From a virus (taxonomy: Duplodnaviria > Caudoviricetes), in the IMG/VR virus record IMGVR_UViG_3300047375_000098, positions 1 to 27,927 of that record: a stretch of DNA of 27,927 bases, one strand, 5' to 3'. The first letter of the stretch is position 1; each line of letters begins with the position of its first letter. This document shows positions 11,592 through 27,927 of the stretch, piece after piece. A program made the position numbers and the translations under genes. The notes under the pieces were generated by a model. It was given only the letters and a program-made list of their open reading frames with translations. It made no database searches and had not been told where the DNA came from.

Positions 11592-11625
11592 AAAAAAAAG
11601 GGTTGACCCGATTAAAGGCCAACCC
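11592..11625 (-). terminator. T-phi-like intrinsic terminator after the major capsid gene
   Basis: GGGTTGGCCT-TTAATC-GGGTCAACCC followed by T8; same position as T7 T-phi. Confidence 0.9.
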
Positions 11626-11635
11626 AAAAATTAGA

Positions 11636-12595
11636 TTAAGCAGATTTGATTTCTACAGAACACTCTGGGCGCAAGATGCCATGCCCCATTGCGTACTTCG
11701 CCGCCATTAATGTACCTTGATACATAACTTCGAAGTCACCTGATGTTCTTTCAACTGCTAAGTCCATTAACTTAACAGTACCCAAAGCTTGCTTCTGCAT
11801 TACTACAGCTACAGTGTTTTGGAAGTCACCGTGGTATGTGTTGTTCTCACCAGCTACTGCTGATACGTTTGTTGTTGGTACGTTGTTAGATTTAACAATA
11901 TCAATACCAGCAACTTTAAGAACTGTACCGTCTGCATAAACACCAGCACCACCGAAGTCACGGTTGATTACGTCTGTTGTTTGTACAAGGTTGTAGTATT
12001 GTGAAGGTTTCACGATAGCTACACGCTCATTCTCAGGAACGTCTTTCTCGTCCATGATTTTAGCCGCTTCAAAGATTGATGCCGCTAATGATGCGCCGTT
12101 AGTTGCCGCGTCTGCGTCTGTGATAGCTGAACCGCCGTTACCACCTGTTACAGTAGCACCAGAACGAGCCGCTAATACAGCTAATTGTAAACAGCGAACA
12201 TCGAATTGTTTAGCTAGAGCCATACCTAATAGACGTGAGTATTCTGCACGTACATCATAGTGGTTCTTAGCTTCATCGATATTTGCGATAAATGTGTCAG
12301 CAATTAATACGTCATCGATGTTGATAACGATTTCATTGTGAGCGATTTGTTGTGTACCCAATAGTGGTGTACCTACAGTGTGGTATGCGGCATTCGCTTT
12401 ACCTGTCACTGGGAATGATGCTGATTTACCAGACGCGATTGTACGCGATACGTGTAAATCTTTCATTACGTTTGTTTCGTCAAAAGCAGTTAAAACTTCA
12501 CCAGCAAATACTTTAAGAAATAAAGCATTCGACTGCGTTGCATTAGCCGCCGCTAGGTTTGCCGCGCCGAGGCGTGACGGAGTTACGTTTGTCAT
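11636..12595 (-). CDS. gp10: Major capsid protein, T7 gp10-like, 319 aa
   Basis: ALFLKVFAGEVLTAF, RTIASGKSASFPVTG, HYDVRAEYSRLLGMALA, KYAMGHGILRPE motifs. Confidence 0.97.
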   Translation of the reverse strand: MTNVTPSRLGAANLAAANATQSNALFLKVFAGEVLTAFDETNVMKDLHVSRTIASGKSASFPVTGKANAAYHTVGTPLLGTQQIAHNEIVINIDDVLIADTFIANIDEAKNHYDVRAEYSRLLGMALAKQFDVRCLQLAVLAARSGATVTGGNGGSAITDADAATNGASLAASIFEAAKIMDEKDVPENERVAIVKPSQYYNLVQTTDVINRDFGGAGVYADGTVLKVAGIDIVKSNNVPTTNVSAVAGENNTYHGDFQNTVAVVMQKQALGTVKLMDLAVERTSGDFEVMYQGTLMAAKYAMGHGILRPECSVEIKSA

Positions 12596-12727
12596 TGTCT
12601 TTTCCTATTGAAAATAATTTATAGATTTAAGAATGACTTTCGGTCTCTTACTAGGCAGGGTTGTCATACGCATATGGCCTTGTCGTTCATTGTCGATAGT
12701 CTCAACCACCCAAATTAGGTGTGTTAG

Positions 12728-12769
12728 TTATTTCTTAGTACCTTTTCCGTAAGGTTTTTTCTTAGACAT
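12728..12769 (-). CDS. Putative 13-aa Lys-rich micro-ORF MSKKKPYGKGTKK
   Basis: AGGAG Shine-Dalgarno followed by taact then ATG; TAA at 12728-12730; lies in the scaffold-capsid gap. Confidence 0.5.
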   Translation of the reverse strand: MSKKKPYGKGTKK

Positions 12770-12790
12770 AGTTACTCCTATAATAGTATT

Positions 12791-12810
12791 GATGGGGATT
12801 TCTCCCCACC
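12791..12810 (-). other. GNRA-tetraloop hairpin just after the scaffold stop
   Basis: GGTGGGGA-GAAA-TCCCCATC, 8-bp stem, no U-tract. Confidence 0.55.
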
Positions 12811-12819
12811 ATAATAGTT

Positions 12820-13512
12820 TTAAAATACTGAAGACCGTCCTAGTTTTTCTTCAACGTCTTTAGTGTACGCTGAGTCTTTACCGTATCGAGGGTCTTTCAT
12901 AGCCGCTACAACTTGTGCTGTGCTACGGAATTCATCTTTAGATGCCGCTGATGCTCTACCTTGTAGTAAGCTAGGCTCAGAACCTTCTGCCGCTTCACGT
13001 TTAGATGCAAGCCATTCGACTGCCATCTTTGCATTCTCAGTCCCACCATCGACCATGTTGTTATACAACTCTAGTTCTTTAGTATCGAGAGATTGCTTTG
13101 CCCAATCAGTTAATTCTGCGTAACCTTCTTCACCACCAGCTACATCCATAACTGCGGCAACATCGGCTGTTGCTCCTGATTGCATACCTTTAATGTATGT
13201 CTCCACCATTTCCCGTGGATATCCCATACCTTCAAGTTCTGTGAAGCTATCATTAGATAACTCACCACCAGCGGCGTATTCATCTGCAAACTTTGTAAAG
13301 CTGACAGGTTCACCTTTAGGTGTCTCAATGTCTGCTTCTGGAGTATCATTTGGTGATGACATCTTCTTCTCAAGTTCGCCGTATGATTTAGCCATATCTT
13401 CTGGTGAGCTAAACTTTTCGGGCAACCACTCAGGTCGTTCAGAAAGATTATCTTCTGCAACTGGTGCTTCAGAACCTGTCTCTTCTTCTGTTATTGTGAT
13501 GCTTTCTGCCAT
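12820..13512 (-). CDS. gp9: Capsid scaffolding protein, T7 gp9-like, 230 aa
   Basis: Acidic; RPEWLPEKF...LEKK; AGGEEGYAELTDWA; C-terminal AMKDPRYGKDSAY...VEEKL. Confidence 0.93.
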   Translation of the reverse strand: MAESITITEEETGSEAPVAEDNLSERPEWLPEKFSSPEDMAKSYGELEKKMSSPNDTPEADIETPKGEPVSFTKFADEYAAGGELSNDSFTELEGMGYPREMVETYIKGMQSGATADVAAVMDVAGGEEGYAELTDWAKQSLDTKELELYNNMVDGGTENAKMAVEWLASKREAAEGSEPSLLQGRASAASKDEFRSTAQVVAAMKDPRYGKDSAYTKDVEEKLGRSSVF

Positions 13513-13514
13513 TC

Positions 13515-13643
13515 TTAGAAGTCTTCCCTTTTAATTGGGTGTGGATTTCCTTTGATAATGGAAGGTGTTGCCAGTGGTTTCTTTACAGGCTCTTCTGAAG
13601 GTTTCTTATCCTTCGCCGCCTTGCTGTCTTTGGCTTTCAACAT
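13515..13643 (-). CDS. Small hypothetical protein, 42 aa (MLKAKDSKAAKDKKPSEEPVKKPLATPSIIKGNPHPIKREDF)
   Basis: Manual translation; AGGA upstream; overlaps the portal 3' end and stops 2 nt before the scaffold ATG, filling the gap. Confidence 0.65.
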   Translation of the reverse strand: MLKAKDSKAAKDKKPSEEPVKKPLATPSIIKGNPHPIKREDF

Positions 13644-15156
13644 ATGAATTTCCTAATGCTTTAACTCCCTCTTGAATTGCGTTTGGCGAAGCTTGCATTG
13701 CCATTTGTTGCATCTGCGCTTGCTGTTGCTCTTGGGAGATTTGTTCTTGTGTTTTAATAAGACCGTCTGTCTCGATGCCTAATGCTGTTGCACGGCGTTT
13801 GATATAGTCCTGTAAGTTTACATATTGCTGTAATACTTCAGACCCTAATGCTTGAGACATTCCTTGTATAAACAAATCTAATTTGCGTAGGTCATGCCCA
13901 CGTCCTAGTGCTTCCATACCAGTTACGATTGAAGGTTTTACAACCTCTTCTGGTAACTTAGGTAGCTTCTTAGATTTAGTTAGTACGTCGATCTTACGGT
14001 TAATGTAAGGTAACTGAAATTCTTGAGATAAGATTGAGTAAATACCTGATAGGGTATCTTCTAGTTCACCTGCAAGATATCGTATTTCTTCCGCTGTTAC
14101 ACGTTCAGCGTTTCGAGATACAGATGATTGTAACATGAACTGTTGTGATAGGCGTTCTTCAATACCCTGCATAGCTTGGTAAGCCACGCGGAAGTCGTTG
14201 AACTTATCCATCTGTAAAACAGACACATCGTTCTTATTACCTTCAATGATTGCTGTATTCTCTGCTTGAGCTATTGTTCTCATTCTGGTTGTACCGTTAG
14301 GATTAACCATGAATAATACTTTAGCCGCCGCCGCCGCGCCCTCAACGATTGCTTGTGATAAAGCTTCAAGAGACCGTAAGTCACCTAGAAGTTCTTCAAC
14401 AAACCCTCGACCATAATCCTCACCGTCAATACGGGAGAACCTTAATGGTAGGAATGGTACGCTATCTTTCTTATATTTACCTTTAGAGCCAGTAACTAAT
14501 GTACCCTTGCACTCTTGGTAAACAGTATAGAAATCATTCTTACGCTCTATATGAGTGTAGATTTCTACAGTCTTTTCGTCACCTTCAAGTTTTCCTGTTA
14601 TGTTAGCCGCTGTCGCTTTGTCCAGAGCGTTAGGTGAAACGTGTTCAACCGTTACTATCTCTAACACTTCGCCGTTAGGGGCGCGTGATACAACATAACT
14701 ATCTAAATGGATTACTCTTGTTTTATTTTGACCGACTTGTAACAAAACGTTACCGCCGACAATTAAGTGTTTTAACGCTTCATGTACCGCTACTCGATCA
14801 CCAGACGTTTCAATCTCAGACATTACTGCCCGTTCATACTCACCTAATTGTTGTTCCATTGCAGTTCTAGCCGCATCGTCTTGAGCCATATCTTTTAAAG
14901 TATACGGTTCAACCATGAGGCGAAAGAATGGTGAGTTAGGTGGCATTAGGGCTAGTGAAAGTTTAGAAGCTAAATTATTAACACCTCTCGCACCGATGCC
15001 TTGAAACGGTGTGTATAAATCACTTGTCTCGTTATGGCTATCTTGTGGTATTAAAGATGGAATAGTTAGTTCTGAACAATCTCTAGCTCTATCTAAATAC
15101 GATTGTCGTCCTTGTTCGAGCTGACGATACCGCGCTTCTGCAGTACCTTGACTCAT
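13606..15156 (-). CDS. gp8: Portal (head-tail connector), T7 gp8-like, 516 aa
   Basis: GARGVNNLASKL..PPNSPFFRL; GEDYGRG; AERVTAEEIR; TGMEALGRGHD. Confidence 0.97.
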   Translation of the reverse strand: MSQGTAEARYRQLEQGRQSYLDRARDCSELTIPSLIPQDSHNETSDLYTPFQGIGARGVNNLASKLSLALMPPNSPFFRLMVEPYTLKDMAQDDAARTAMEQQLGEYERAVMSEIETSGDRVAVHEALKHLIVGGNVLLQVGQNKTRVIHLDSYVVSRAPNGEVLEIVTVEHVSPNALDKATAANITGKLEGDEKTVEIYTHIERKNDFYTVYQECKGTLVTGSKGKYKKDSVPFLPLRFSRIDGEDYGRGFVEELLGDLRSLEALSQAIVEGAAAAAKVLFMVNPNGTTRMRTIAQAENTAIIEGNKNDVSVLQMDKFNDFRVAYQAMQGIEERLSQQFMLQSSVSRNAERVTAEEIRYLAGELEDTLSGIYSILSQEFQLPYINRKIDVLTKSKKLPKLPEEVVKPSIVTGMEALGRGHDLRKLDLFIQGMSQALGSEVLQQYVNLQDYIKRRATALGIETDGLIKTQEQISQEQQQAQMQQMAMQASPNAIQEGVKALGNSYVESQRQQGGEG

Positions 15157-15167
15157 AATTTACGTTC

Positions 15168-15395
15168 TCACTTTGTTATTTGTAGTCCAGTATTTTTACC
15201 CATGTTTGTAACAGTTGGGTCTAGGTCTACACGTAACTGAGATGTTCCAGCGGCCTTATCAGCTACTGCACCTTTCTCTTGAGTGTTACCACTCTCAGGT
15301 GTAGATGGGTCGTACATATTAGTTTGTACAGGGTTAACCGCTGGTGGCGCGGCTGGTGGGGGTGTAGGTTCGGCTTTACTGCCTCCAAAGCACAT
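15168..15395 (-). CDS. Small virion protein preceding portal, T7 gp7.3/6.7-like, 75 aa
   Basis: MCFGG N-terminus, Pro-rich linker, GTSQLRVDL...GLQI C-terminus; AGGAG RBS; synteny. Confidence 0.7.
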   Translation of the reverse strand: MCFGGSKAEPTPPPAAPPAVNPVQTNMYDPSTPESGNTQEKGAVADKAAGTSQLRVDLDPTVTNMGKNTGLQITK

Positions 15396-15398
15396 AGT

Positions 15399-15575
15399 CT
15401 ATTCTCCTAAATTTGAAGCTAATTGTTCTTCATGAATTGTTGTTAAAAAGTCTACGACTGAACGCTGTCCACCACGCCATTTTAATTCATCCAATGTCTC
15501 ACCAGCTTTGGGAGATACATTAGGAAAACGTGTGTTAAGTTCTGCTAGTAGTTCTTTAGAAATATAAGGAAACAT
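15399..15575 (-). CDS. Hypothetical protein, 58 aa (MFPYISKELLAELNTRFPNVSP...WRGGQRSVVDFL...)
   Basis: Missed by the 60-aa track; GAGG RBS directly behind the phage promoter; fills the gap between phoH and the gp7.3-like gene; resembles small conserved proteins found at this position in T7-like phages. Confidence 0.8.
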   Translation of the reverse strand: MFPYISKELLAELNTRFPNVSPKAGETLDELKWRGGQRSVVDFLTTIHEEQLASNLGE

Positions 15576-15590
15576 TGTTTGTTTAATCCT

Positions 15591-15608
15591 CTAAAGTGCA
15601 ACCTAATT
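15591..15608 (-). promoter_or_regulatory. Phage RNA polymerase promoter (late/structural module)
   Basis: AATTAGGTTGCACTTTAG, near-identical to copies at 24830 and 26468; overlaps the phoH stop; predicted +1 G at 15591. Confidence 0.8.
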
Positions 15609-16286
15609 AAAGGCGCGTGTCCATGCGGCACATATACCTGACCTCACAACATCGTCGTGAGTGAAGTTACAATGGGCGGCTGGAATGTTATGTTTATGCA
15701 ATAAATCTATAGCAATCTTTAGACCTGAGTTACCACTAAGGTCATGCTGAGATATATCACCGTTAATTATTACCTTGGTGTTTTCTCCTATTCTGGTGAG
15801 AAACATCTTCATTTCGTGAGGTGTAAGGTTCTGTCCTTCATCTAATATTACAAACGCATCATTAAATGAACGGCCTCTCATAACCTCGAAAGGAACTATT
15901 TCGATATCATTACGCTTACGAGCTATCTCATATTTACCTTTACCTAGTCTTTCAGTTAGAACTTCAGTAATCGGATAGACCCAAGGTGCAATCTTCTCTT
16001 CAATAGTACCTGCAAAGAAACCTAAAGATTTACCTGCAGGGATGTTAGGGCGAGTTAATATAATCTTTTTAACTCTATGTTTATTATACATATCAGCGGC
16101 AATAGCCGCCGCTATATAAGTCTTACCAGTACCTGCAACACCAGTAACAAATACCTGAGAGTATCGGTGGATACACTCCATATAGTTCTCTTGTGCAGGG
16201 TTCTTTGGGAGTAGAGGTTGGACGCGAGGATTAACCACGCGCCCTTGCTCTTCTACCTTACGTTTGTAGGCAGATTTTTTAGCCAT
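15603..16286 (-). CDS. phoH: PhoH-like ATPase
   Basis: Walker A GVAGTGKT; LGFFAG; MRGRSF; ILDEGQN; GDISQHD; DVVRS. Confidence 0.95.
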   Translation of the reverse strand: MAKKSAYKRKVEEQGRVVNPRVQPLLPKNPAQENYMECIHRYSQVFVTGVAGTGKTYIAAAIAADMYNKHRVKKIILTRPNIPAGKSLGFFAGTIEEKIAPWVYPITEVLTERLGKGKYEIARKRNDIEIVPFEVMRGRSFNDAFVILDEGQNLTPHEMKMFLTRIGENTKVIINGDISQHDLSGNSGLKIAIDLLHKHNIPAAHCNFTHDDVVRSGICAAWTRAFN

Positions 16287-16295
16287 ATTTATTCC

Positions 16296-18281
16296 TTATC
16301 GGATTGGGCAAGCACCTGTTGCACATTCATCATCAGTTAATTCATCAAATGAGTTTGCGTTCTCAATATCTACGGGTGCTAGTTTTGATACATATTCATC
16401 GTATACTTCTTTAGATACGACATCTTGAGGTAGGTAGGCATAGCCTAAGTCTTCAGCAGTTTTAGTTGGGTCGTTCCTGTAGATGAATGATACACCTACA
16501 TAGCTGTCCCAGTTATTCATAATCCAATCAATCATACTTGGGATTTCATCAGGAGAATAACTAATGGTTACTGAACAATTATGGTCTACATAATTATCCA
16601 TCATTAGTTTGTATCTATCTAATTGCTGTACTGCAGTTTCGAGATTTACAAACTTACCATCAACTTCATCAAACCTAACATCGTCATATGATACAGGGAA
16701 TGTAATCAATACGCTGTCAGGTTCGAATGGTTTCTCAATTACCTTGTATCCAGCATTAGTCATGATGGGTACGATAGGGTCATGCTTAGAGAAAGTAACA
16801 TTGTTAAACAGATACTTACCTAATGGTCGATGCACTCCTTCCGTAGTCGACATGATTTTTGACAACGTTCCCGAAGGTTTTATGGTTGATACAAGTTTAG
16901 CTCTAGGTAGTCCTAGTTCATCCGCAATACTGTTAGCTCCTAGTCTTGCTTGAGCCTGTAGTGTCTTGAGCATACTCTCGACATTCATGTACATATATTC
17001 TTGATGGTCTAACCATTTAACAATACCTGTAGCACCGACACCACATAGACGTAAGAATTCATTTAGCTCATGCCATGAACGCTGTAAGATACCGTCATCT
17101 AAATTCACACAAGTCTGCCGATAGTTTGCTCTAGCTGACATATAAACAGCACGTTTCAAACCTTCGAAGTCATCAAGGAATTTACCCCAATCAATCTCAA
17201 CTAGGTTACAGAAACTCTTATTACCTAAGAGTATCTCCGCGCATGGGTTAACTCCTTTAAAATGTGGAGCGCGTTTGAGTGCGGCTTCAGCATTAATGAA
17301 TGCAGGTTCTGAACCACCAGCATCAACCATACGGTCAAAGATATATGCTATCTCCCACTTGGTAGGCTTCTTAAAGAATAACAATGAGTTGTTAGATTGT
17401 TGTCTGTGTGCATTGTCATGTAACCAGAAATCTTTCTTAGCTGATATAAACTCATCAACTTCGATATCATCTACAGGCATCACTGCGATTTCTGCAGAAC
17501 GTCTTGAAGACAATGTAGTTCCCATATGGTTAAGCAAGTCTAAGATATCCATACGTGTTAGTAATTGACCAGCACGTTTGTTCATCATGTTACATATCTT
17601 TTCTAGTGCTATGTGTAATGTATCATCGCCAGAACTAATCCAGCCATAACCTTTTAGCCTAGTACCTGCAGGTCTGATTTCAGTGTAATCTAATATCAAC
17701 CTATCGATAGGGTCTTTCAGTGCCATGATTTTACCTAGAGCTTTAGCCCAAGCCCTCGCACTATCACCGATAGTTATCTTATAGATACGATAGCCTTCTT
17801 CAGTAACCCGTAGTTCTGTTTTGTTATCTTCAGCACCACGGTCTGTCCTTGTCGAACGAAACGTTTCTACCTCGATGTGCTTTGCAAAGCCATTAAGTGT
17901 ACCAACGATAGGTTCAAAGCCAACACCACAGCCTTGTAGTAGTAACCAGAATGCATCCACTACATCGTGGACTGTTTCTATTCTACCAAAGCTACAGTTA
18001 AATTGAGATGCTTCATGCTTCTTAGCTACATCAGTTCCACCGAGCCATAAGGTACGGCCTGATGTTGTAGCTTTCCTAGACATCATTAGTTCTCTGAATT
18101 CATTAAGCTCACCAGTTTCACCTTGGTTAAGCTTCTCACCTTTACTGCGTTCCCATAACCATTCTTGGTGGTTGATTACACGGTCAACTGTTTGCTCCCA
18201 TGTTTCAAACACTGTGCCTTCATCGTTGAGGGGTCTATTATATGTACGTCTTGTTACAACGTCAGCTCTTATATCTTTCAT
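16296..18281 (-). CDS. nrdJ: Class II (adenosylcobalamin-dependent, monomeric RTPR-type) ribonucleotide reductase
   Basis: GRTLW, FNCSF, GCGVGF, NPCAEI, FCNLVE, TIKPSGT and C-terminal CATGACPIR redox pair; no class I beta subunit in the window. Confidence 0.9.
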   Translation of the reverse strand: MKDIRADVVTRRTYNRPLNDEGTVFETWEQTVDRVINHQEWLWERSKGEKLNQGETGELNEFRELMMSRKATTSGRTLWLGGTDVAKKHEASQFNCSFGRIETVHDVVDAFWLLLQGCGVGFEPIVGTLNGFAKHIEVETFRSTRTDRGAEDNKTELRVTEEGYRIYKITIGDSARAWAKALGKIMALKDPIDRLILDYTEIRPAGTRLKGYGWISSGDDTLHIALEKICNMMNKRAGQLLTRMDILDLLNHMGTTLSSRRSAEIAVMPVDDIEVDEFISAKKDFWLHDNAHRQQSNNSLLFFKKPTKWEIAYIFDRMVDAGGSEPAFINAEAALKRAPHFKGVNPCAEILLGNKSFCNLVEIDWGKFLDDFEGLKRAVYMSARANYRQTCVNLDDGILQRSWHELNEFLRLCGVGATGIVKWLDHQEYMYMNVESMLKTLQAQARLGANSIADELGLPRAKLVSTIKPSGTLSKIMSTTEGVHRPLGKYLFNNVTFSKHDPIVPIMTNAGYKVIEKPFEPDSVLITFPVSYDDVRFDEVDGKFVNLETAVQQLDRYKLMMDNYVDHNCSVTISYSPDEIPSMIDWIMNNWDSYVGVSFIYRNDPTKTAEDLGYAYLPQDVVSKEVYDEYVSKLAPVDIENANSFDELTDDECATGACPIR

Positions 18282-18604
18282 CTGTTATCACCATTTCCTT
18301 TTAGCACCCCTCGCTCTTGGCGGTCTGCTAACTTGCTCAAATTTTTTTCGGCTAATACTTGTAGGGTTGTATTGTGTACCCGTGCCAATTCACTGACAAA
18401 CCAGAGTACATCTCCTAGTTCGTCTAAGACTTCAGCCCTTGGGTACACGCCATCCTTGCGGTAATACTTAGCGACCTTACCGTTCAGCTCACCAACCTCA
18501 GATGATAAGCCAAGTGTTAAATATTCTAGTGCGTGTTTAGTTGGATACACGGCTGTCTTCTCAGCACCATCTTGGTACTGATTAAGCGTTAATTCTTTTG
18601 TCAT
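18278..18604 (-). CDS. mazG: MazG-like nucleotide pyrophosphohydrolase
   Basis: LGLSSEVGE...DELGDVLWF and C-terminal KLADRQERGVLKGNGDNR. Confidence 0.9.
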   Translation of the reverse strand: MTKELTLNQYQDGAEKTAVYPTKHALEYLTLGLSSEVGELNGKVAKYYRKDGVYPRAEVLDELGDVLWFVSELARVHNTTLQVLAEKNLSKLADRQERGVLKGNGDNR

Positions 18605-18834
18605 TATTTGCTCACGTATTGTTTAAGTTCTGTGTAGCCACCAACATGAACGCCAGTGTCTGTGAATATTTGTGGAACGTGGGTTTCACTTGTCATTAAG
18701 AGGAGTGTCTTTAGCCACGGTTCTTCTTCGAGATATGTAACCTCGAAGGGAATGTCTTCTCGTTCGAGAAGGTTGATTGCTTCTTTACAGAATGTACAAG
18801 AATGGGTTGATACAACGTGGTACTTACCACTCAT
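18604..18834 (-). CDS. Glutaredoxin / NrdH-like redoxin
   Basis: CTFC active site, VPQIF, VGGYTEL. Confidence 0.9.
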   Translation of the reverse strand: MSGKYHVVSTHSCTFCKEAINLLEREDIPFEVTYLEEEPWLKTLLLMTSETHVPQIFTDTGVHVGGYTELKQYVSK

Positions 18835-19076
18835 AACTCACTCATACCTGTAAGAAGATTAAGCCGCATCTCAGCGTACCTAATCACCTTATATAAATCT
18901 GTAGCTTCGCTATCTTGTGGGGTCATACCATCATACTGTTTATGCCCAGCGCGTACAGCATACTTAACAATGTTACCTACATGAAAAGGTAAGTCGTTAC
19001 GCATTATGAATTCGATAGGTTCAATTACATACTGAGTATAATGGGCAGGTTTATTTACTAGGTCGGGGGTGTCCAT
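18831..19076 (-). CDS. DUF3310-family protein (related to T7 gp1.7-type nucleotide kinase)
   Basis: DLVNKPAHY...IEPIEFI...FHVGNIVKYAVRAGHK pattern. Confidence 0.8.
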   Translation of the reverse strand: MDTPDLVNKPAHYTQYVIEPIEFIMRNDLPFHVGNIVKYAVRAGHKQYDGMTPQDSEATDLYKVIRYAEMRLNLLTGMSEL

Positions 19077-19795
19077 AGGATTACCTTTCTTGTTTTGAAA
19101 TCGTAGTTGTCTGAACGGCAGATACGAGCGACACGCGCTTGTGTAAGTGCAACCGATTCATTGAGGTTTTGTTTTGCATATGCTTTGACAACTGCGTCCC
19201 ACATCTCAGTTATGGTTTCACAACCATCGAGAATTTTTTCTGCAGTTTTAATGCCACATCTAGGTAGACCCTTGTAGCCATCGACAGCATCACCTGTCAG
19301 TGTCTGAACCATATGAAAGTAATCAGCTTCACGAACGGATACTATGCGTATCCTCTCGTCTTTAGCTGGGTTGTAAAGGTGACAGGGTATTGTGTTTAAG
19401 TCTTTATCTTCTGACACAACAATACAGTCTGGTTCATTGGTTGCAGTAATACCTAATAGGTCATCTGCTTCCATAGTATCTACCATGATACCATCCATCT
19501 CAGTCATAATATATTCACGTAAAGCTTTTAGTATTAGAGGCTTACGTGTATTCTTACGATTAGACTTATAGTCAGGCAGAACATCTTTACGCCAGTTATC
19601 AGTATGGGTCAGATACATAACAACCTCACCTTCACCTAGATGATTAGTCACTTGGTGAATGTAGTTCTTTATATAATCTATACCCTCATGTTCATAGGCG
19701 TGTAGTGTCCACATACCATCGCCCCAATCAATAGGACGCTCAACACTTGAGGCCGCTTTGAATGCAACAATGTCTGCATCTATTAAATACTTCAT
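19058..19795 (-). CDS. gp6: 5'-3' exonuclease, T7 gp6-like
   Basis: LIDADIVAF; WRKDVLPDYKSNR; MEADD; DKDL; LTGDAVDGYKGLPRCGIKTA. Confidence 0.95.
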   Translation of the reverse strand: MKYLIDADIVAFKAASSVERPIDWGDGMWTLHAYEHEGIDYIKNYIHQVTNHLGEGEVVMYLTHTDNWRKDVLPDYKSNRKNTRKPLILKALREYIMTEMDGIMVDTMEADDLLGITATNEPDCIVVSEDKDLNTIPCHLYNPAKDERIRIVSVREADYFHMVQTLTGDAVDGYKGLPRCGIKTAEKILDGCETITEMWDAVVKAYAKQNLNESVALTQARVARICRSDNYDFKTRKVILWTPPT

Positions 19796-19992
19796 TGTAT
19801 CTTACCCCCATCGAATGCCATTAGATCAGCGTTAGTTTTTTCTTTGGGTGACATAACAGCTAAACAGATGAGTGCCGCATCATGAACTATGTTCTTCATG
19901 GCTTCGTCTTCAACACTGTCGTGGGATGTAGCTAGTGCAACAATGCATTGTGACATTGATGTAAATACTACTAGGTCTTTATCATTGATCAT
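19792..19992 (-). CDS. Hypothetical protein, 66 aa
   Basis: Fills the gap between thyX and exonuclease with short overlaps at both ends (ATGA coupling to the exonuclease). Confidence 0.7.
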   Translation of the reverse strand: MINDKDLVVFTSMSQCIVALATSHDSVEDEAMKNIVHDAALICLAVMSPKEKTNADLMAFDGGKIQ

Positions 19993-20623
19993 GAGTTAAC
20001 GCCTTCCATGAGATTGGGTAGAGAGCTTCCATTTGTTCACCGAGTAGTTCAGCAAAGTCTCTAGTTTCTTTTTGTGTGTCGGGTTTAATTCTAAGATTGT
20101 AGACGCGAGACCAAAACAATAATGAACCTGTCCAGACCCACTCCGTGACTGCCCCCTGTGGAAGGATTGCCCTTGCTTGTTCGGCACAAATTCCAACAGC
20201 TATCATCTTGTTATATGTAGCAATCGCATCGATGCAGATGTCGTGGTAATCTTCAACGAATTCATCTGAACGTCTGTGTGGTTCTGAACTAGAACCTTGC
20301 TTCACATCGTCTGCGCCAGCTCTAAAGAACTCTGGCTTCCAGTAGATAGGATTAGATTTTATGTACCGTCTACTAACTTCATTCCATGTTCCACCGACTT
20401 GGTGTTTTGCAAGTTGTCTGCTAACAAAGATAGGAGCTGTACATCTGAATGTAGCTACTGGATGTGAGAAGGGATGGTAATGTTTTTCCCTAGCTAGAAA
20501 GTTTATAAGTCTTTCGTTTTGGTTGTCACCGTATTGGTCGGCTTGTTTGTTAAACGATACACGGGCGGCATCTGTCACAAGGTTATCACAACCCATGTGG
20601 GTCATATAAGATACATCAATCAT
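19982..20623 (-). CDS. thyX: Flavin-dependent thymidylate synthase ThyX
   Basis: AARVSF; HYHPFSH; PIFVSRQLAKHQVG..WNEVSRRY; EQARAILPQ; TQKETR. Confidence 0.93.
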   Translation of the reverse strand: MIDVSYMTHMGCDNLVTDAARVSFNKQADQYGDNQNERLINFLAREKHYHPFSHPVATFRCTAPIFVSRQLAKHQVGGTWNEVSRRYIKSNPIYWKPEFFRAGADDVKQGSSSEPHRRSDEFVEDYHDICIDAIATYNKMIAVGICAEQARAILPQGAVTEWVWTGSLLFWSRVYNLRIKPDTQKETRDFAELLGEQMEALYPISWKALTHDQ

Positions 20624-20631
20624 AGTAATCC

Positions 20632-21033
20632 TTAATGGTTAGTTTTAATGAAATTAGGGTCGTTGGTTGTGTGAACTTCACGGTGGCAGTTAGCACATAG
20701 AAGAAAGCATTTATCTGCTTCAGCTAACAAAGCACTCATAGACCTTTGCATATTATTCTGACTTACTCCGAATAGTTTTTGAGTATGGTCAAAGTGGTGA
20801 AAGTCAAAGACATTCTCATGGAATGTATTGAAGCACCGTTCGCACTCGCCGCCTTTATAGGCGACAAGTAATCTCTTTCTTTCACGCACTTTCTCTCGCA
20901 CCTGTATTGAACGTGGATTGCTAGTGTGTGTCTGCCCAATTATTGCCGACTTTGTATTCTCCTGTAATTGGCACTCTGAACTTGAAGTGTTCTCCAGCTT
21001 GTTGAAAAGATTTAACTGCTTGCTTTCCGACAT
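20632..21033 (-). CDS. Free-standing HNH (putative homing) endonuclease
   Basis: YKGGECERC...FDFHH...KCFLLCANCHREVH zinc/HNH pattern; GAGGAG 10 nt upstream of the ATG, inside the polymerase gene. Confidence 0.8.
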   Translation of the reverse strand: MSESKQLNLFNKLENTSSSECQLQENTKSAIIGQTHTSNPRSIQVREKVRERKRLLVAYKGGECERCFNTFHENVFDFHHFDHTQKLFGVSQNNMQRSMSALLAEADKCFLLCANCHREVHTTNDPNFIKTNH

Positions 21034-22705
21034 GATCAGCTATCTCCTCTCTTGCTATAAGTTGAACTTCATCGTGGACGTGAGCGACTTGCGCCCAATC
21101 CTTGCCCCATGTGTAACCGTTACTGGTTAGATTTTCATAAAGGATTACTGTGGCTTGCTTTGCGATTAGCGAGCCAGCCCCTTGTAACAAGGTGTTGAGG
21201 CAACTATGCGTGGAGCGTACTGGTAAGATACGTTTATCCAAACCAACTAGGTGACCTTTAGTTTTAGCTGATCTGGTTACAGCGTCTTTAAGTAGCTTGA
21301 GGGCAGGGGTTGCTTTCATGAACTTATCAATCAAACGCTTACCGTCCTTCTCACTACCGCCAACTATAGAACCAATCTTTGCAGAACCTGCCCCGTAGAT
21401 GAAAGCATACGCAAATACTTTCGATTGATTACGTGAACTCAAACCAGCACTCTTCATATTTAGTGTATGCACGTCACCATTGATGACGACATCACCGTAA
21501 GCACCGTCATCAAACTTAGCCATGAAGTGCGCTAATACTCTTAGTTCCAATCCCGACAAGTCTGCTCCCACAAGTTTGTAGCCAGATGGTGCATGGAATA
21601 AGGCTCTGCAATCTGTACCGTATGGAGCTGATACGCTAGGACACTGAGCAATGTTTGGTCGATTGTGTGTACAGCGTCCCGTGCTTGCTCCATTAGTATT
21701 AACTTGTCCATGTATCTTTCCATTCACTTGTCTCTTCAGCCAGCCATTAGCACCTGTAGCTAACTGACCGATACGCTTGTTGATAAGGAGATACTCATTG
21801 AGTACGACTGCTTCATCGTAATCTAATTCTTTGAGTACGCTCTCATCGACTTGTGGTTTGCCTTGGGCTGTAAACTTCTCAGGCTTCCAACCTCGTAACA
21901 CTTGCAATCTGTCTGCTATATGGTCACGGGATGCAGGGTTAAATACAATCGTCTTAACCTTGTAGGTCAGTTCACCTTTAACATAACCACGGGTCTTGTT
22001 GTTTACCTTTGGTACGAATGGTGTCTTGATTTCCCAAGGTGGAAAGACTTCTTGTAGTGTTGTCTCTAACTCTGCCTGTCGCATCTGTAGTTTCTGCAAC
22101 AGTTTGTTAGCGGCTGATACATCAAAGTTAAAACCTTGTCGCTCTTGCTTACGAATGACGTGAGCGAAATCATGCTCAAGCTTTATACTTTGAGGGCTTG
22201 GGTTCTTAGACATAATAAACTTATAGAATGTCAGGTTAGCTTTAGTATCTTGGACGCAATAGGTCTGCATTTCTTCAGACCATTCAGCCCAGCCACCATC
22301 ATACTCTATCTTATTATCACCTAACCTAAGACCCCACGCTTTAAGCGAGTGGCTACCTATTAGATTTCTAGGGAAGTCTAAGTTCTTCTTAATGTAATTG
22401 AAGTCATTGTTTTTAAGATCAGACCAGACGAGACGGGACATCAATAACGTGTCATGTATCTCACCTTCATATACAAATCCAAACAACTTCTCTAATGCAG
22501 GGAAGTCAAACCCTTGGATGTTGTGACCTGCAAGTAACTCCGCATTCTCAAGATAAGCCATACCATCTGCAATAGATGTATATCCTTCCTGATCTGCACA
22601 GCTTAATACTTCTTCAGTATCCATATCTAATAACACAAGGCTATGGCATACTGTTAGGTCTGGTACTAGACCATCTGTTTCGATGTCAAACATAATACGT
22701 TTCAT
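20921..22705 (-). CDS. gp5: DNA polymerase, family A with 3'-5' exonuclease, T7 gp5-like
   Basis: FDIET, HNIQGFD, YCVQD exonuclease motifs; DLSGLELR (A), KVFAYAFIYG (B), HVHDEVQ (C); ends NWADTH. Confidence 0.97.
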   Translation of the reverse strand: MKRIMFDIETDGLVPDLTVCHSLVLLDMDTEEVLSCADQEGYTSIADGMAYLENAELLAGHNIQGFDFPALEKLFGFVYEGEIHDTLLMSRLVWSDLKNNDFNYIKKNLDFPRNLIGSHSLKAWGLRLGDNKIEYDGGWAEWSEEMQTYCVQDTKANLTFYKFIMSKNPSPQSIKLEHDFAHVIRKQERQGFNFDVSAANKLLQKLQMRQAELETTLQEVFPPWEIKTPFVPKVNNKTRGYVKGELTYKVKTIVFNPASRDHIADRLQVLRGWKPEKFTAQGKPQVDESVLKELDYDEAVVLNEYLLINKRIGQLATGANGWLKRQVNGKIHGQVNTNGASTGRCTHNRPNIAQCPSVSAPYGTDCRALFHAPSGYKLVGADLSGLELRVLAHFMAKFDDGAYGDVVINGDVHTLNMKSAGLSSRNQSKVFAYAFIYGAGSAKIGSIVGGSEKDGKRLIDKFMKATPALKLLKDAVTRSAKTKGHLVGLDKRILPVRSTHSCLNTLLQGAGSLIAKQATVILYENLTSNGYTWGKDWAQVAHVHDEVQLIAREEIADHVGKQAVKSFQQAGEHFKFRVPITGEYKVGNNWADTH

Positions 22706-22735
22706 GATGCTGTCCCTCTCGACTAGCTAGTTAAA

Positions 22736-24361
22736 TTAAAAATCATCTTCATCACCCCCGAAGTCGGGAGCGTTGTCTGGGTTCTGGGTTTCAATCATAC
22801 GTCCAGTTTCTTTGTTGTAGTTTAGGTAACAACCTATGCCTGTCTCTCCGCTGTAGCGGTTCTTGAGAACTCTCACGGTAGTAGTGTTTGGGTTGTCACC
22901 TTGTTGGTCTCGCTCTACTGAGATAACCATATCGCTTAACTGTGCGATTGCGGCTGAACCACGTAGGGAATTGAGGGTAACTTCTTTACCATTCTCCCAA
23001 CCTTGTTCACCTGCAGGTCTGCGTAAATGACTGACTAAGATAAGTCCGATGCCTGTCTCTTCTACAAGAGAACGTAGCTTCGTCATTATAACATCGATAG
23101 CTTTCCGCTCATCACCATCATCAATACCTGAAACAATAATGCTGAGATGATCGATGATAATCCAGCTAGTGCCACAAGATTTCGCAAGGTATCTGACCTG
23201 CTCCATGAGCTTATCCGTAGACATAGAGCCGAAAGAATCGTAGAGGAAAACACGACCATTGCCAACGGTAGTATCGAAAGCAGTTTTAAGAGTATCATTT
23301 GATATTCCTTCCTGAGTTAAATGAAGAGGTACATCTATAGCCAGACCCATTAGAGAGATTGCTGTATGCTTACAGTTTTCTTCTAAAGCGATATAACCTA
23401 ATGTCTCTTCCTGTTTAATTAAGTGGTATGCAATTTCTCTACATACCTGTGACTTCCCAACCCCAGAACCTGCAGTAATAGTTACAAGTTCACCACGTCT
23501 TATACCTCTAGTCTTTTCATTGAGACCATCGAACGGGTAGGGTACGGATTGGGTATTGTCTGGTGTAGAAACTAATTCCCACATATCCACACCAGCTATG
23601 ATGCCATCAGGTCTATAGGGTTTAGCTTCCCACATAGCCTCTAGCATCTGCTTAGTCTTGCCTTTCACTAGCATATCACTAGCGTCTTTCTCAGGTAACG
23701 TAGCAATGTGTGCCTTAGATGGTGATAATAACTTAGCCACATCAAGGCTTGCTTTCCTACCGTGTTCATCGTTGTCGAACATGAGAACAACACGGTCAAA
23801 TGACTCAACAAAATCTAAAGAATTCTGTACAGCTTTGACTGCATTGCCAGCTCCTGACGGTAAACTACATACAGGAAAACGATTACCTTGTGCTTGGGAA
23901 AGTGAAAGCGTGTCCAGCTCACCCTCGGTTAGGCAAAGCATAGCACCACCACCTTTAAAAAGATGTTGTCCGTACAACCCTGCATTCTTTGCATCACCTA
24001 AGAATTTAAAAGACTTGTCAGCGAAGCGTATCTTCTGAGCTACGACTTCACCGTCCTTCTTATAGTTAGCAACCTGCACAGGCTGGCCTTTGTATTCACT
24101 AATAGTATAGCTATACTTCTTACAGGTTTCTTCAGTTAGCTTACGTTTAGCAAGTGAACCTGATTGACCTGTAGGAATAAGACCGAACGTTGGTTTAGAT
24201 TGTACGAATTCTGTTTGCATCTTGGCATCATCCTTAAAAAATTTTTGGCAAGAAAAGCACCAGCTTCCACCGTCACTATAAACTGCACGGGCATCGCTAC
24301 TGCCACATTCACACGACGTATGGTAAAGTAATGAACTATCGTTCGAGCTGGTACTCTGCAT
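22736..24361 (-). CDS. gp4: Primase-helicase, T7 gp4-like
   Basis: Zn finger CEC...CFSC; TEGELD, FDNDEHG and KDASD (TOPRIM); GSGVGKS, IDHL, LRGSAAIAQLSD, KNRYSGETG (DnaB-like). Start at 24361 is preferred over 24373 because GGAG lies 6 nt upstream. Confidence 0.96.
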   Translation of the reverse strand: MQSTSSNDSSLLYHTSCECGSSDARAVYSDGGSWCFSCQKFFKDDAKMQTEFVQSKPTFGLIPTGQSGSLAKRKLTEETCKKYSYTISEYKGQPVQVANYKKDGEVVAQKIRFADKSFKFLGDAKNAGLYGQHLFKGGGAMLCLTEGELDTLSLSQAQGNRFPVCSLPSGAGNAVKAVQNSLDFVESFDRVVLMFDNDEHGRKASLDVAKLLSPSKAHIATLPEKDASDMLVKGKTKQMLEAMWEAKPYRPDGIIAGVDMWELVSTPDNTQSVPYPFDGLNEKTRGIRRGELVTITAGSGVGKSQVCREIAYHLIKQEETLGYIALEENCKHTAISLMGLAIDVPLHLTQEGISNDTLKTAFDTTVGNGRVFLYDSFGSMSTDKLMEQVRYLAKSCGTSWIIIDHLSIIVSGIDDGDERKAIDVIMTKLRSLVEETGIGLILVSHLRRPAGEQGWENGKEVTLNSLRGSAAIAQLSDMVISVERDQQGDNPNTTTVRVLKNRYSGETGIGCYLNYNKETGRMIETQNPDNAPDFGGDEDDF

Positions 24362-24533
24362 ATTTCGCTCCATTAGGTGCGCGTTTCATTAAGGTTGTGA
24401 TATCCAAACCACGTTGTCGTAGTCTGTGTATCTCTGCGGCTAATCGCCAGACGCTATAGTTTGACATAGCTTCTAACGGTGAGATTGTGCCGTACTTTTT
24501 TAGGTGGTCTTTAATCTGTGTAGTCTTATTCAT
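24336..24533 (-). CDS. Small winged helix-turn-helix protein (HTH_39-like)
   Basis: QIKDHLKKYGTISPLEA...RLAAEIHRLRQRGLDI...AEYQL; AGGAG RBS. Confidence 0.8.
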   Translation of the reverse strand: MNKTTQIKDHLKKYGTISPLEAMSNYSVWRLAAEIHRLRQRGLDITTLMKRAPNGAKYAEYQLER

Positions 24534-24542
24534 AGTAGTCTC

Positions 24543-24761
24543 CTAGTTGTCAGGATTTCGGGGATTGCCTAGTGCATCTAATAGTGTGAACCAGACATCG
24601 AGTGCGGCCTCGACAGGCCATAAGAAAAAGATAAACAACCAGCTACGTAAGGCTAAGTCTTGATCTTCTTCTAGCTCCATACTGACTTGCCGTGTTAATA
24701 GAACACCGCCAAGAAAGTAGAGTAGCATTGTAATTAGAATTAGAATTGTTGTGAGTGACAT
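24543..24761 (-). CDS. Small membrane protein, ~72 aa, two hydrophobic segments
   Basis: Start moved to ATG 24761 (GGAG 5 nt upstream); hydrophobic stretches ILILITMLLYFLGGVLL and WLFIFFLWPVEAALDVWFTLL. Confidence 0.7.
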   Translation of the reverse strand: MSLTTILILITMLLYFLGGVLLTRQVSMELEEDQDLALRSWLFIFFLWPVEAALDVWFTLLDALGNPRNPDN

Positions 24762-24774
24762 TATGTCTCCAGAT

Positions 24775-24805
24775 AAAAAAGACCCCACGCGAAAAGCGTG
24801 AGGCC
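24775..24805 (-). terminator. Intrinsic terminator
   Basis: GGCCTCACGC-TTTTC-GCGTGGGGTC (10 bp, two G-U pairs) followed by T6. Confidence 0.85.
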
Positions 24806-24830
24806 AGTTGGGAGGAAAATATTAAAATGC
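24775..24830 (-). ncRNA. Candidate 56-nt small RNA, suhB/MmgR (alpha-r8)-like, with anti-SD core
   Basis: Bounded by a phage promoter +1 and a terminator; GCAUUUUAAUAUUUUCCUCCCAACUGGCC...hairpin-U6; the UUUCCUCCC-(N)ACU-hairpin layout matches my recollection of the alpha-r8 core. Confidence 0.5.
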
Positions 24831-24847
24831 TATAGTGCAACTTAATT
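24830..24847 (-). promoter_or_regulatory. Phage RNA polymerase promoter (after amidase)
   Basis: AATTAAGTTGCACTATAG followed by CATT, the same initial sequence as the 26468 copy; predicted +1 G at 24830. Confidence 0.82.
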
Positions 24848-25286
24848 AAATGGTGGATACTATCTCACCTGTATTGTACCAAAGTTCAGCATCAAAATTT
24901 GGACAGGTCTTACCCTTATCAAAATCTGTGTGGCCTTTAACTTTAGCATCAGGGAAGTGTTCCCATTTTAGTTCATCGATAGTTTTCTTTAACGATGCAT
25001 ATTGTTCATCAGTATAATTTATCTGCGCTCCAGTTTTGTCAGCGTTCATTCCACCAATCAAACAGATGCCGATTGATTTCCTATTCATTGATCTGACGTG
25101 TGCGCCTGTACGTGATAATGGTCTACCATATTCAACAGTGCCATCGCGTCTAATGACCAGATGATAACCACAACCGAGCCATCCTTTAGCTCTATGCCAG
25201 CGGTCAATATCTTTGACACCAATGTCCATAGTTCTGGGTGTGTACGCACAGTGTATAATAATATGTGTGACATCTTCTTTATTCAT
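24846..25286 (-). CDS. gp3.5: N-acetylmuramoyl-L-alanine amidase (T7 lysozyme gp3.5-like)
   Basis: IIIHCA; IDRWHRAKGWLGCGYH; GAHV; SIGICLIGG; GHTD..KTCPNFD. Confidence 0.95.
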   Translation of the reverse strand: MNKEDVTHIIIHCAYTPRTMDIGVKDIDRWHRAKGWLGCGYHLVIRRDGTVEYGRPLSRTGAHVRSMNRKSIGICLIGGMNADKTGAQINYTDEQYASLKKTIDELKWEHFPDAKVKGHTDFDKGKTCPNFDAELWYNTGEIVSTI

Positions 25287-25722
25287 TTAGCCACTCCTCT
25301 GGTACTGTACGGTCTGCGTATAAGAAGCCGTGCTTCTCACACCACATGGCGTAGGTTGTCTTGCTGGTTTTAGAAATACGTTGTTTGCTGTTGGAGAATA
25401 CAAAGCGAAGGTCGATATCTGGATGCTGATTTTTTACCAGTATCATGGATTGTCTATTGGCAACTTTGAACTGCCCCTTGCTTTCTACTATGATTGTCTT
25501 CCCAGATTTAGTTTTAATATAAAAGTCTGGTGTGTATCGTGCCATCCTTGAGGGTACTTCATACTTCAGTACGTTCTCTTCATACTGGTAATCGATACCC
25601 TTAGAACGTAAGTCAGCGGCAAGGGTTTCTTCTAACCCTGACCGCCAACCATTCTTTATTGCGTTCTGTCTTACAGTAGAATTTCTGACACCACCAAGCT
25701 TTCGCTTAGAAGTCTGCGTCAT
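25279..25722 (-). CDS. gp3: Endonuclease I (Holliday junction resolvase), T7 gp3-like
   Basis: RSGLEE; YTPDF; VESKG; QHPDIDLRFVFSNS; YAMWCEKHGF. Confidence 0.96.
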   Translation of the reverse strand: MTQTSKRKLGGVRNSTVRQNAIKNGWRSGLEETLAADLRSKGIDYQYEENVLKYEVPSRMARYTPDFYIKTKSGKTIIVESKGQFKVANRQSMILVKNQHPDIDLRFVFSNSKQRISKTSKTTYAMWCEKHGFLYADRTVPEEWLNE

Positions 25723-26305
25723 CTGATACTGCTACCGCCTCGCTACTATTATCAAAGTTATCTGCGACGAAGCCATCTTCTTTATCAAACATAGATAAAG
25801 CTTCAGCACCGCCAGACCCTTGAGCCAGTTGGATAATCTGTATAGCTGATGGTCTCAGCGATACACCGACACGTCTAGTTGAAGGCATTGCATATGTATA
25901 TGCGCTTGCCGCTACACGAATAGTAGAACCACCAGTTACTGTGGCATCTGTAGGTGTCTTGTTGCTATCATATAAAGCAACCTTCATCTCCATCTCACCA
26001 CGGCGTGTAGTAATCTTAGCTTTCTGTTTAAACTTAAACAAATTGAAGCCAGTAAGATTACCTTGGTCGTCTTCTTCTTCTTCATAGACAGGAGCTAGAT
26101 CATACTTAGCAATCTTAGGATTGTTCTTAGCTTCTTCATCCCTGTAAGCATCGCGTAAACCTTCAAGCTGTTTGATCAGGTCTTGGCTTTTAGATGCCTC
26201 TATTTTCAGTGTTGTTTTATACTCACCATCTACATTAAATTTGTAGTCTGGTGCATTTAGTTTAGGCCATACTGCTATGCCTTTAGGTGTGACAAAATTC
26301 GTCAT
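25706..26305 (-). CDS. gp2.5: Single-stranded DNA-binding protein, T7 gp2.5-like, ~199 aa
   Basis: TPKGIAVWPKLNAPD..F...GEYK; GGSTIRV; GVSLRPSAIQII; acidic tail ending DDADF. Start moved to 26305 (AAGGA RBS). Confidence 0.92.
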   Translation of the reverse strand: MTNFVTPKGIAVWPKLNAPDYKFNVDGEYKTTLKIEASKSQDLIKQLEGLRDAYRDEEAKNNPKIAKYDLAPVYEEEEDDQGNLTGFNLFKFKQKAKITTRRGEMEMKVALYDSNKTPTDATVTGGSTIRVAASAYTYAMPSTRRVGVSLRPSAIQIIQLAQGSGGAEALSMFDKEDGFVADNFDNSSEAVAVSDDADF

Positions 26306-26315
26306 ACTTATTCCT

Positions 26316-26441
26316 TTAGTTGTGTTGATATTCAGTAGTTGAAATACCATGAGCATGAAGCCTCGCCTGTACATCGACAGGCAAGGGCATCGCATTTCGC
26401 TTATAGTATTCAGCCATCATTATGAGTGTCTCAGTATCCAT
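26316..26441 (-). CDS. Small hypothetical protein, 41 aa (MDTETLIMMAEYYKRNAMPLPVDVQARLHAHGISTTEYQHN)
   Basis: Manual translation; AAAGGA RBS; first ORF behind the phage promoter; its stop overlaps the SSB RBS. Confidence 0.75.
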   Translation of the reverse strand: MDTETLIMMAEYYKRNAMPLPVDVQARLHAHGISTTEYQHN

Positions 26442-26467
26442 AAGTTCCTTTCGGTTTCGTGAGAATG

Positions 26468-26485
26468 CTATAGTGCAACCTAATC
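26468..26485 (-). promoter_or_regulatory. Phage RNA polymerase promoter directly downstream of the RNAP gene
   Basis: GATTAGGTTGCACTATAG then CATT; position equivalent to T7 phi1.1; predicted +1 G at 26468. Confidence 0.85.
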
Positions 26486-26499
26486 GTTAATGGTTAGAA

Positions 26500-27927
26500 T
26501 TATGCAAAGAAGAACTCTGACTGACGTACTTGTGTAACATCGAAGTCACCCTTTGGTGGTAGGTCAGGTAGTTCTCTATCGATTAACAACTCTCCTTCAT
26601 CTTTAAATTTCTGTAGTGGGTCGTTCTCTACATAAAGTTCTATGAAGGTTTCTCTTAGACAAGCACCAAGCATCTCAACATCAGCGGCGTGACATCCAAA
26701 GCTATCATGTATCATAGCAAAGTGAGTGACACCGTTGAACTTAGATAGGTTGACTGTCATTCTTAGGTGACAGCTATCATTAGCGTGAACCCAATTAGGA
26801 CTGATGCCATTACCTTGTCGTCTGCTATCCAGCTTATCTTTGATAGCTTCCTGTACTGTCATATAGATTAGCTTGTCACCAAACTTGGTCTTAACTCTGC
26901 GCTTCTTCATATCAGGATAGTTCTGCATGATAGGTAAACCATCGATAGTAGTCCAAGTGATAGGTAAGTTTTCTTTAGCCAACTCCCTAGCACAAGACTG
27001 TAACCAATCCATGCCTGTCTTAGCCGCCTTAACTGTATCGTTGATAGCTTCCCAGATATACTTAGCTAGGTAGATTGCCGCATCAAATTCTTTATCAAGT
27101 AAAGGAGATACATATGATCTATCAGCTTGTAATCTTTTCAAGTCTGTATCAACTATATATTCCTGTACAAATGACCTTGCTGAGAACAACGTTGAACCAT
27201 AGACCCGTGTCATTACTGATCTTTTACTCGACGATCTGGTCATACCAAAATCTAACCAAGCCTGTGCTATTTCTTTATTCTCCCCACGCACAGCATCAGC
27301 CTTAACTCTGATGATAGCTTTATCAATCACAGTCTGATAGATATCTGCAGGTTTATCTAATGGTAGTAGGTTTACTTGTGTCGCACCTTCACCGTCAGAT
27401 AAAGCGGCTGAGAAATGTTGAAGGCCAGAACAACTACCATCCTTACAAACTGGTATGTAGTTTACATGATCATAACCAAAAAGATTATATCCTTCCCACT
27501 CCTTACAGAATGCTAGGAAACACCAAGGACTGTCAGCTTCTTTAGCCCACCATAAGTCTTCCATAGGGTCATGAGCTACCTGTAATATTCGTTGCTCATT
27601 TTCTACTACCCAATCAACTCTCTCTTGCATCGATGCCTTGTCATATCCAAAGCAGTTAGCACCGTGGATTGCTAGTTCACAAGCGGCCTCGTTTGTACCT
27701 AATGGTTTACCATCTGCAAACTGTAGCAGTCCTTTAGATAAATCATTACCTTGCGGTGAGAGATGTGAAGAACCTGCAGGGTAAAGCCTACCTCTAAAGT
27801 CCATCGTATGTACAAAGAAGATACTCTCAAACTCAGAATATTTTTCTGCCATAAATCTTACCCGTGCTGTTAGGTTTCTTTTAGAACCTATACGGATGTT
27901 CTCGTCATAGATTTTAGTGGCTTTTCT
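26500..27927 (-). CDS. gp1: Single-subunit DNA-dependent RNA polymerase, T7 gp1-like; N-terminal part outside the window
   Basis: DFRGRLY; DGSCSGLQH (motif A); KRSVMTRVYG (B); IHDSFG (C); C-terminal FFFA; frame open to the right edge (RKATKIYDENIRIGSKRNLTARVRF before M at 27852). Confidence 0.98.
   Translation of the reverse strand, partial: RKATKIYDENIRIGSKRNLTARVRFMAEKYSEFESIFFVHTMDFRGRLYPAGSSHLSPQGNDLSKGLLQFADGKPLGTNEAACELAIHGANCFGYDKASMQERVDWVVENEQRILQVAHDPMEDLWWAKEADSPWCFLAFCKEWEGYNLFGYDHVNYIPVCKDGSCSGLQHFSAALSDGEGATQVNLLPLDKPADIYQTVIDKAIIRVKADAVRGENKEIAQAWLDFGMTRSSSKRSVMTRVYGSTLFSARSFVQEYIVDTDLKRLQADRSYVSPLLDKEFDAAIYLAKYIWEAINDTVKAAKTGMDWLQSCARELAKENLPITWTTIDGLPIMQNYPDMKKRRVKTKFGDKLIYMTVQEAIKDKLDSRRQGNGISPNWVHANDSCHLRMTVNLSKFNGVTHFAMIHDSFGCHAADVEMLGACLRETFIELYVENDPLQKFKDEGELLIDRELPDLPPKGDFDVTQVRQSEFFFA

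Follow-up and report, generated by a model that had tools for sequence, protein, structure and literature searches.

A phage promoter directed into a terminator behind the amidase gene of a CRP-114-like Roseobacter phage: a probable stop-and-restart junction

Why a phage should place a promoter only 25 nt ahead of a terminator is the question raised by the region behind the amidase gene in the 27,927-nt stretch of DNA analysed here (the window). The first-pass annotation had read this region as a self-contained unit for a 56-nt RNA, a candidate viral mimic of the alphaproteobacterial suhB/MmgR (alpha-R8) small RNA family, on the ground that mRNA synthesis alone hardly accounts for a promoter that runs straight into a terminator. 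The 56-nt sequence is exactly as annotated and runs from 24830 to 24775 on the minus strand, which the annotation had left unstated.

The phage is a CRP-114-like Roseobacter autographivirus, marine and T7-like, with all genes of the window on the minus strand in T7 order: RNA polymerase, SSB, endonuclease, amidase, two small ORFs, primase/helicase, DNA polymerase, nucleotide-metabolism genes and structural genes. The nearest cultured phages by primase (68-71% identity) are the Roseobacter phages CRP-361, -125, -114, -227, -171 and -113, and because these closest cultured relatives infect Roseobacter (CRP phages were isolated on RCA strains, PMC11092137), the host of the window phage is likely a roseobacter. 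A complete viral contig that is nearly identical to the window (G001) encodes an integrase and a regulator, and its early region includes a gene matching the anti-restriction protein family phrog_7245 (L618:4662-5537). In the window, an HNH endonuclease ORF (20632-21033, minus strand) overlaps the end of the DNA polymerase gene, and a second strong terminator (11600-11625, minus strand) directly follows the major capsid gene in a position equivalent to that of T7 Tphi. The features that bear on the question are these:

26469-26485, minus strand: phage promoter after the RNA polymerase gene, whose transcripts would stop at or cross the hairpin
24846-25286, minus strand: T7 gp3.5-like amidase, the final gene ahead of the junction
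24831-24847, minus strand: predicted phage RNA polymerase promoter (-17 to -1), the positional equivalent of T7 phi3.8 and LUZ100 phi4
24806-24830, minus strand: linker of 25 nt, G-poor and unpaired, with an AU-rich part, a CU-rich part and ACU
24809-24818, minus strand: match to the alpha-R8 core in 9 of 10 bases, the last base being A instead of U
24781-24805, minus strand: TE-like terminator hairpin of 10 bp
24775-24780, minus strand: U6 tract
24767-24770, minus strand: GGAG, the ribosome-binding site of the gene that follows; pairing of this site with the linker is predicted for read-through RNA
24543-24761, minus strand: hydrophobic ORF of 72 aa without a PHROG or Pfam family, present in some relatives and deleted in several others
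24336-24533, minus strand: winged helix-turn-helix protein of 65 aa (PF14090)
22736-24373, minus strand: primase/helicase, transcription of which would have to cross the terminator
15592-15608, minus strand: next near-consensus promoter downstream, ahead of the structural genes

The annotation of a phage promoter holds. The 17-bp motif is repeated and strand-specific, being present in the window in three copies with zero or one mismatch, all on the minus strand and all at gene ends (one at the amidase stop), and each of four complete genomes of relatives has five to six copies in forward orientation, versus zero to one for a reversed control. The distance from the amidase stop to the promoter is 16 nt, compared with 19 nt for T7 phi3.8, and the +1 position at 24830 is predicted by T7-type numbering rather than mapped. 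From the hairpin to 15606, the minus strand contains no site with fewer than two mismatches and just two sites with two, both intragenic and downstream of the DNA polymerase gene. Since no near-consensus promoter lies nearer, expression of the primase and DNA polymerase would, to judge from a scan limited to near-consensus sites that divergent promoters may escape, depend on read-through of the terminator. The promoter is absent or decayed in some relatives (L017-L023, CRP-227 and CRP-361) while the terminator stays. A variant promoter precedes the terminator in L109, L119 and L121, and a more distant phage (L044; amidase, 48%) has tandem copies of the motif at 1458 and 1498, 40 nt apart.

Folding bears out the annotated 10-bp hairpin, U6 tract and unpaired 5' half, seed included: the hairpin folds at -17.9 kcal/mol (z = -4.7; equally stable shuffles, 0 of 200) and is the top-ranked terminator-like site within 12000-27927. 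Eight consensus pairs are retained in 10 of 10 aligned relatives, just one pair being changed on both sides. At the 34 of 80 amidase loci with at least 61% identity, hairpin and U tract come next, except in L021, where other DNA follows, and L034, which is cut; at more distant loci with the amidase before the primase, they are found there in 11 of 39. The terminator is retained with A-rich, C/A-rich or zero-length (L494) linkers. Extra ORFs or other DNA lie between amidase and terminator in L109, L110, L119-L121, L379, L283 and L021, and in CRP-118, -804 and -403 (L089-L091) the amidase-primase gap is only about 9 nt, so that the junction is absent there.

The window thus has, ahead of its replication genes, the GC-rich hairpin, U tract and conserved pairing of a TE-like or LUZ100 T6-like terminator. 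CRP-114, -125, -171 and -113 share the 26-nt ACU-hairpin-UUU sequence of T7 TE without a single change, and the terminators of CRP-227 and -361 are one loop base off; in the window itself the hairpin has moved away from TE and is nearer to that of Rhizobium phage RHEph01. Convergence may account for part of the resemblance to T7 TE, because TE-like stems are common among unrelated contigs, for instance behind tRNA-like ends; the ACU prefix to such a stem is found mainly in T7-like phages and CRP-type relatives. An alignment search yielded 36 loci, a metagenome scan of 8 of 64 parts yielded 3 phage loci among 119, none of a new type, and one narrow pattern scan, too strict for a TE-type stem, placed 16 of 82 loci at an amidase, all of them near-clade; a single-protein search of genome contigs gave no matching loci.

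T7 RNA polymerase passes TE; the portions of the literature searched contained no direct data on the polymerase at this terminator. Over eight pairings of a polymerase with a terminator, termination by T7-type polymerases (T7, T3 and SP6) amounted to 12-86% (PMC11347151), and therefore both a short product and read-through would be expected here. Among contigs from four RNA runs (depth 2-6), the site is covered in one run, and the one contig that spans the hairpin may be DNA, with ends that are unreadable.

That a promoter leading into a terminator is hard to reconcile with mRNA synthesis proved wrong, because the same layout has been mapped by experiment in the related phage LUZ100, and for the same reason the promoter-terminator pair is likely to be an ordinary stop-and-restart junction between two gene blocks, of the kind known from T7 and LUZ100. 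In the Pseudomonas phage LUZ100 (OP329100), the amidase gene is directly followed by promoter phi4, with a mapped start at 8644, and by terminator T6, with a mapped end at 8683; units from starts 4100, 6756 and 6801 end at T6 (Table S7), and four units from 8644 extend in long-read data to terminators T7-T10, the longest through the primase (PMC10134795). The phi4-T6 linker is 5-6 nt long and without the seed. No unit from the local start to T6 is listed in Table S7 (PMC10134795), and since the method would likely lose RNAs of only 39 nt, the mapping does not exclude a short product.

By analogy, some of the transcripts across the RNA polymerase, SSB, endonuclease and amidase genes would stop at the terminator, and the promoter just ahead of the hairpin would start transcripts that partly read through to the primase and DNA polymerase. 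The SSB/endonuclease/amidase block would be set above the replication block in level, host polymerase would be stopped before the replication genes in an integrase-carrying phage, and the linker would need only to be short and unpaired. It is from such analogy that we infer promoter activity, terminator activity and the identity of the stopping polymerase. The unit is not confirmed as self-contained, because read-through would be required; the 56-nt RNA is probably made in part, most likely as a by-product that does nothing in trans. A stop-and-restart junction at this locus would provide abundant marine roseophages with a promoter consensus and a likely map of transcription, neither of which is given in the paper describing them, the main text of which does not contain the words promoter, terminator or sRNA (PMC11092137).

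The anti-Shine-Dalgarno stretch UUUUCCUCCC (24819-24810) and the GGAG (24770-24767) lie on the minus strand at the positions claimed for them. The window contains no other site with at least 9 of 10 alpha-R8 core bases on the transcribed strand (one chance site is on the opposite strand), and 0.6% of linker shuffles reach 9 of 10. Across relatives, linker length is very variable (0 in L494, up to 50 nt) and A-rich or C/A-rich forms occur, all of them G-poor; the core match is 4-9 of 10 among 28 related linker types, with the intact 10-mer in none. After removal of near-duplicates from these 28 hand-picked types, at least 8 core bases are present in 5 of 18, and in none of 48 control terminators that have the same stem (Fisher P 0.001, which is overstated because the linker types share ancestry and are not independent). 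On a four-protein tree, which omits eight loci where an insertion or other DNA follows the amidase, seed-like linkers alternate with seedless groups and belong to the window clade, CRP-125, the CRP-114/227 group and L033; L283 also has a seed-like linker, for a total of four to five sublineages. Among homologous loci the core is kept in the near clade, partly kept in three to four other sublineages and lost in others, the seed being missing in CRP-171, L028, L109/119/121, L125/130, L131/293, L017-023 and L494.

The linkers of the window and CRP-125 are identical in 22 of 25 columns, compared with 42% identity at four-fold sites. Without the first four and last three bases, the linker is conserved clearly above shuffles only in CRP-125 (P 0.0015; 0.047 for CRP-114 and 0.054 for CRP-227), and conservation above shuffles reaches a similar degree in the leader that follows the RNA polymerase gene. 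The seed match is not plain noise. In the comparison of relatives that the annotation had proposed, for a conserved seed and stem covariation, the stem pairing is kept and the seed recurs in several sublineages; the seed is lost in other lineages, and the stem offers the single double-sided change. A stop-and-restart junction leaves unexplained both the conservation of the CU-rich linker between the window and CRP-125 and the excess of seed-like linkers (5/18 versus 0/48).

These two observations touch on the best of the rival explanations, which we consider unlikely: that the terminated product, whether the 56-nt primary RNA or a 3'-end fragment of upstream mRNA cut in the AU-rich part, acts like an alpha-R8 RNA and would load Hfq, block host or early phage ribosome-binding sites, or soak up a sponge RNA. 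Alpha-R8 RNAs are defined by an unpaired UUUCCUCCCU after a weak hairpin, plus a terminator (PMC12559287). Membership of the window locus in this family is rejected: in the covariance search it scores 20.4 bits with the suhB model (Rfam RF00519), versus a gathering threshold of 41; its core, although unpaired, has 9 of 10 bases; and the 5' hairpin is absent, all four model pairs being broken in the alignment. A terminator does follow after a short ACU linker, yet ACU plus hairpin is also the sequence of T7 TE, so that ACU does not serve as the mark of suhB for which it had been taken. At the gathering level, Rfam has no match in the whole window. On a 401-nt stretch, suhB has the best E-value (0.06) among 4227 Rfam families, and three unrelated sRNA families score 18.5-22.8 bits. 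Four CRP phages score 10.9-19.9 bits with RF00519, and the locus is the best suhB site genome-wide in CRP-125 (19.9 bits) and CRP-227 (19.8 bits), which favours an alpha-R8-like product; no RF00519 match is listed for G001, although the near-identical window scored 20.4 bits. In alphaproteobacterial genomes, true members score 44-68 bits and host background sites 25-30, above the phage's 20.

The likely host family could support such an RNA, for Hfq is encoded in 101 of 101 sampled genomes (the family of a Shimia genome) and suhB exceeds the cut-off in at least 11 of 101, with 41 candidates scored per genome. Many of the sub-threshold host matches have a recurring form (core, a block of 5-6 nt, ACU and terminator), found in the Roseobacter-family genomes L603, L604, L606-L608, L614, L616, L617, L576, L599, L601, L602, L609 and L612, many behind a LysR-like gene and one behind a response regulator (labels read from translations). 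These elements (27-41 bits, below the RF00519 cut-off) look like an unmodelled alpha-R8 subfamily. A looser host pattern matched 100 of 101 genomes and was dropped; it carries no evidential weight because its matches were no more frequent than those of its reversed control. A model built from 24 host elements, which scores sequence only because it was built without base pairs, recovered with default filters five of eight held-out host loci (27-41 bits) and none of 31 phage sources; unfiltered, it ranks the window site first in 54.7 kb (10.8 bits, E 0.03), and matches CRP-125 and -227 by their hairpins alone.

Seed-like linkers in four to five sublineages, with the seed unpaired in the 56-mer, also favour an alpha-R8-like product, as does SorX, a precedent for 3'-derived RNAs in Rhodobacter (PMC8625941). 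The RNA has a 12-nt perfect complement at the ribosome-binding site of one early gene (L618:6772-6783 in the G001 early region; shuffle P 0.003), but this gene, of 71 aa and without a family, occurs only in three near-identical contigs, and the match is unrepeated in four of four CRP phages (4-6 nt); no other ribosome-binding site stood out in the search for phage-internal targets. Against such a product there are also the lack of the full 10-mer in every one of the phage linker types, the loss of the seed in CRP-171 and several groups of L-loci, and the shared ancestry that makes the 5/18 count non-independent; moreover, the seed (-8.1 kcal/mol) binds a Shine-Dalgarno model no better than do the C-rich leaders behind other promoters (-7.7 to -8.8 kcal/mol).

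Of the proposed alphaproteobacterial mimic, what survives is its setting (Roseobacter relatives, Hfq and alpha-R8-like RNAs in the host family, and the best E-value for suhB) and the recurrence of seed-like linkers above control terminators; family membership fails. To judge from sequence, a regulatory role of the short RNA is less likely than a stop-and-restart junction. We hold it doubtful, then, that a subset of Roseobacter T7-like phages co-opted the by-product of the junction as an Hfq-loaded anti-Shine-Dalgarno mimic of alpha-R8 or SorX RNAs which, made by the phage's own polymerase, would silence host or early phage mRNAs at the switch to replication. If true, a phage would be imitating, with an RNA made by its single-subunit polymerase, a family of host regulators of carbon metabolism, a case of which the literature listings contained no example. 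A role of the seed is directly testable, because the cultured phages of one host strain, FZCC0023, include a carrier of the seed (CRP-125) as well as seedless ones (CRP-171 and CRP-113).

Less probable still is that the CU-rich linker acts in cis, pairing with GGAG in read-through RNA and lowering translation of the small membrane protein gene. Linker-GGAG pairing is predicted at 0.85 in the window, 0.99 in L015, 0.93 in CRP-125 and 1.00 in CRP-171, the last three above 93-98% of shuffles (computed for 10 of 24 types), and in the seedless CRP-171 a 7-bp stem between the linker and its ribosome-binding site is still predicted. However, 27% of shuffled window linkers pair equally well, pairing is just 0.09-0.24 in the CRP-114/227 group, own pairs do not stand out from swapped ones among 16 types (P = 0.34), and A-rich linkers also precede the same gene.

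That the short RNA primes replication, or that a host promoter lies here in antisense, at 24808-24836 of the plus strand, is very improbable, for a released RNA ending in a hairpin would be a poor primer, and the sigma-70-like site that overlaps the unit (9 of 12 matches, extended -10) is rejected because such sites are no commoner than in shuffles (33 versus 38) and its spacing is lost in relatives (15, 20 or 4 nt).

The proposed stop-and-restart junction can be set beside four known systems. Like the alpha-R8/suhB/MmgR/SisA-D RNAs (RF00519), the window has an unpaired core (9 of 10 bases here) followed by ACU and an intrinsic terminator; unlike them, it has a phage promoter, a different last core base, no 5' hairpin and a core that is lost in close relatives, and host members have a block of 2-6 nt between core and ACU. 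The CRP phages share with the window the gene order, the promoter motif and the position of the terminator, at 68-71% primase identity, but their linkers are 12-28 nt long with a partial seed or none, and in CRP-227 and CRP-361 the promoter is decayed. T7 (NC_001604) likewise has a promoter, phi3.8, directly after the amidase gene, and its TE, with three promoters upstream, is identical or nearly so to the terminators of the CRP relatives, ACU included; unlike in the window, TE follows the ligase gene rather than the amidase gene and has a shorter U run, and the hairpin next to phi3.8 lacks a U tract. LUZ100 differs from the window in its 5-6 nt seedless linker, its promoter and hairpin sequences, an additional promoter (phi5) downstream and a gammaproteobacterial host. 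Like the window phage, however, it is T7-like and encodes an integrase, its amidase stop coincides with a promoter that has a terminator directly behind it and a small DNA-binding gene and the primase downstream, and its mapped upstream termination and read-through from the local promoter are those of the layout proposed here.
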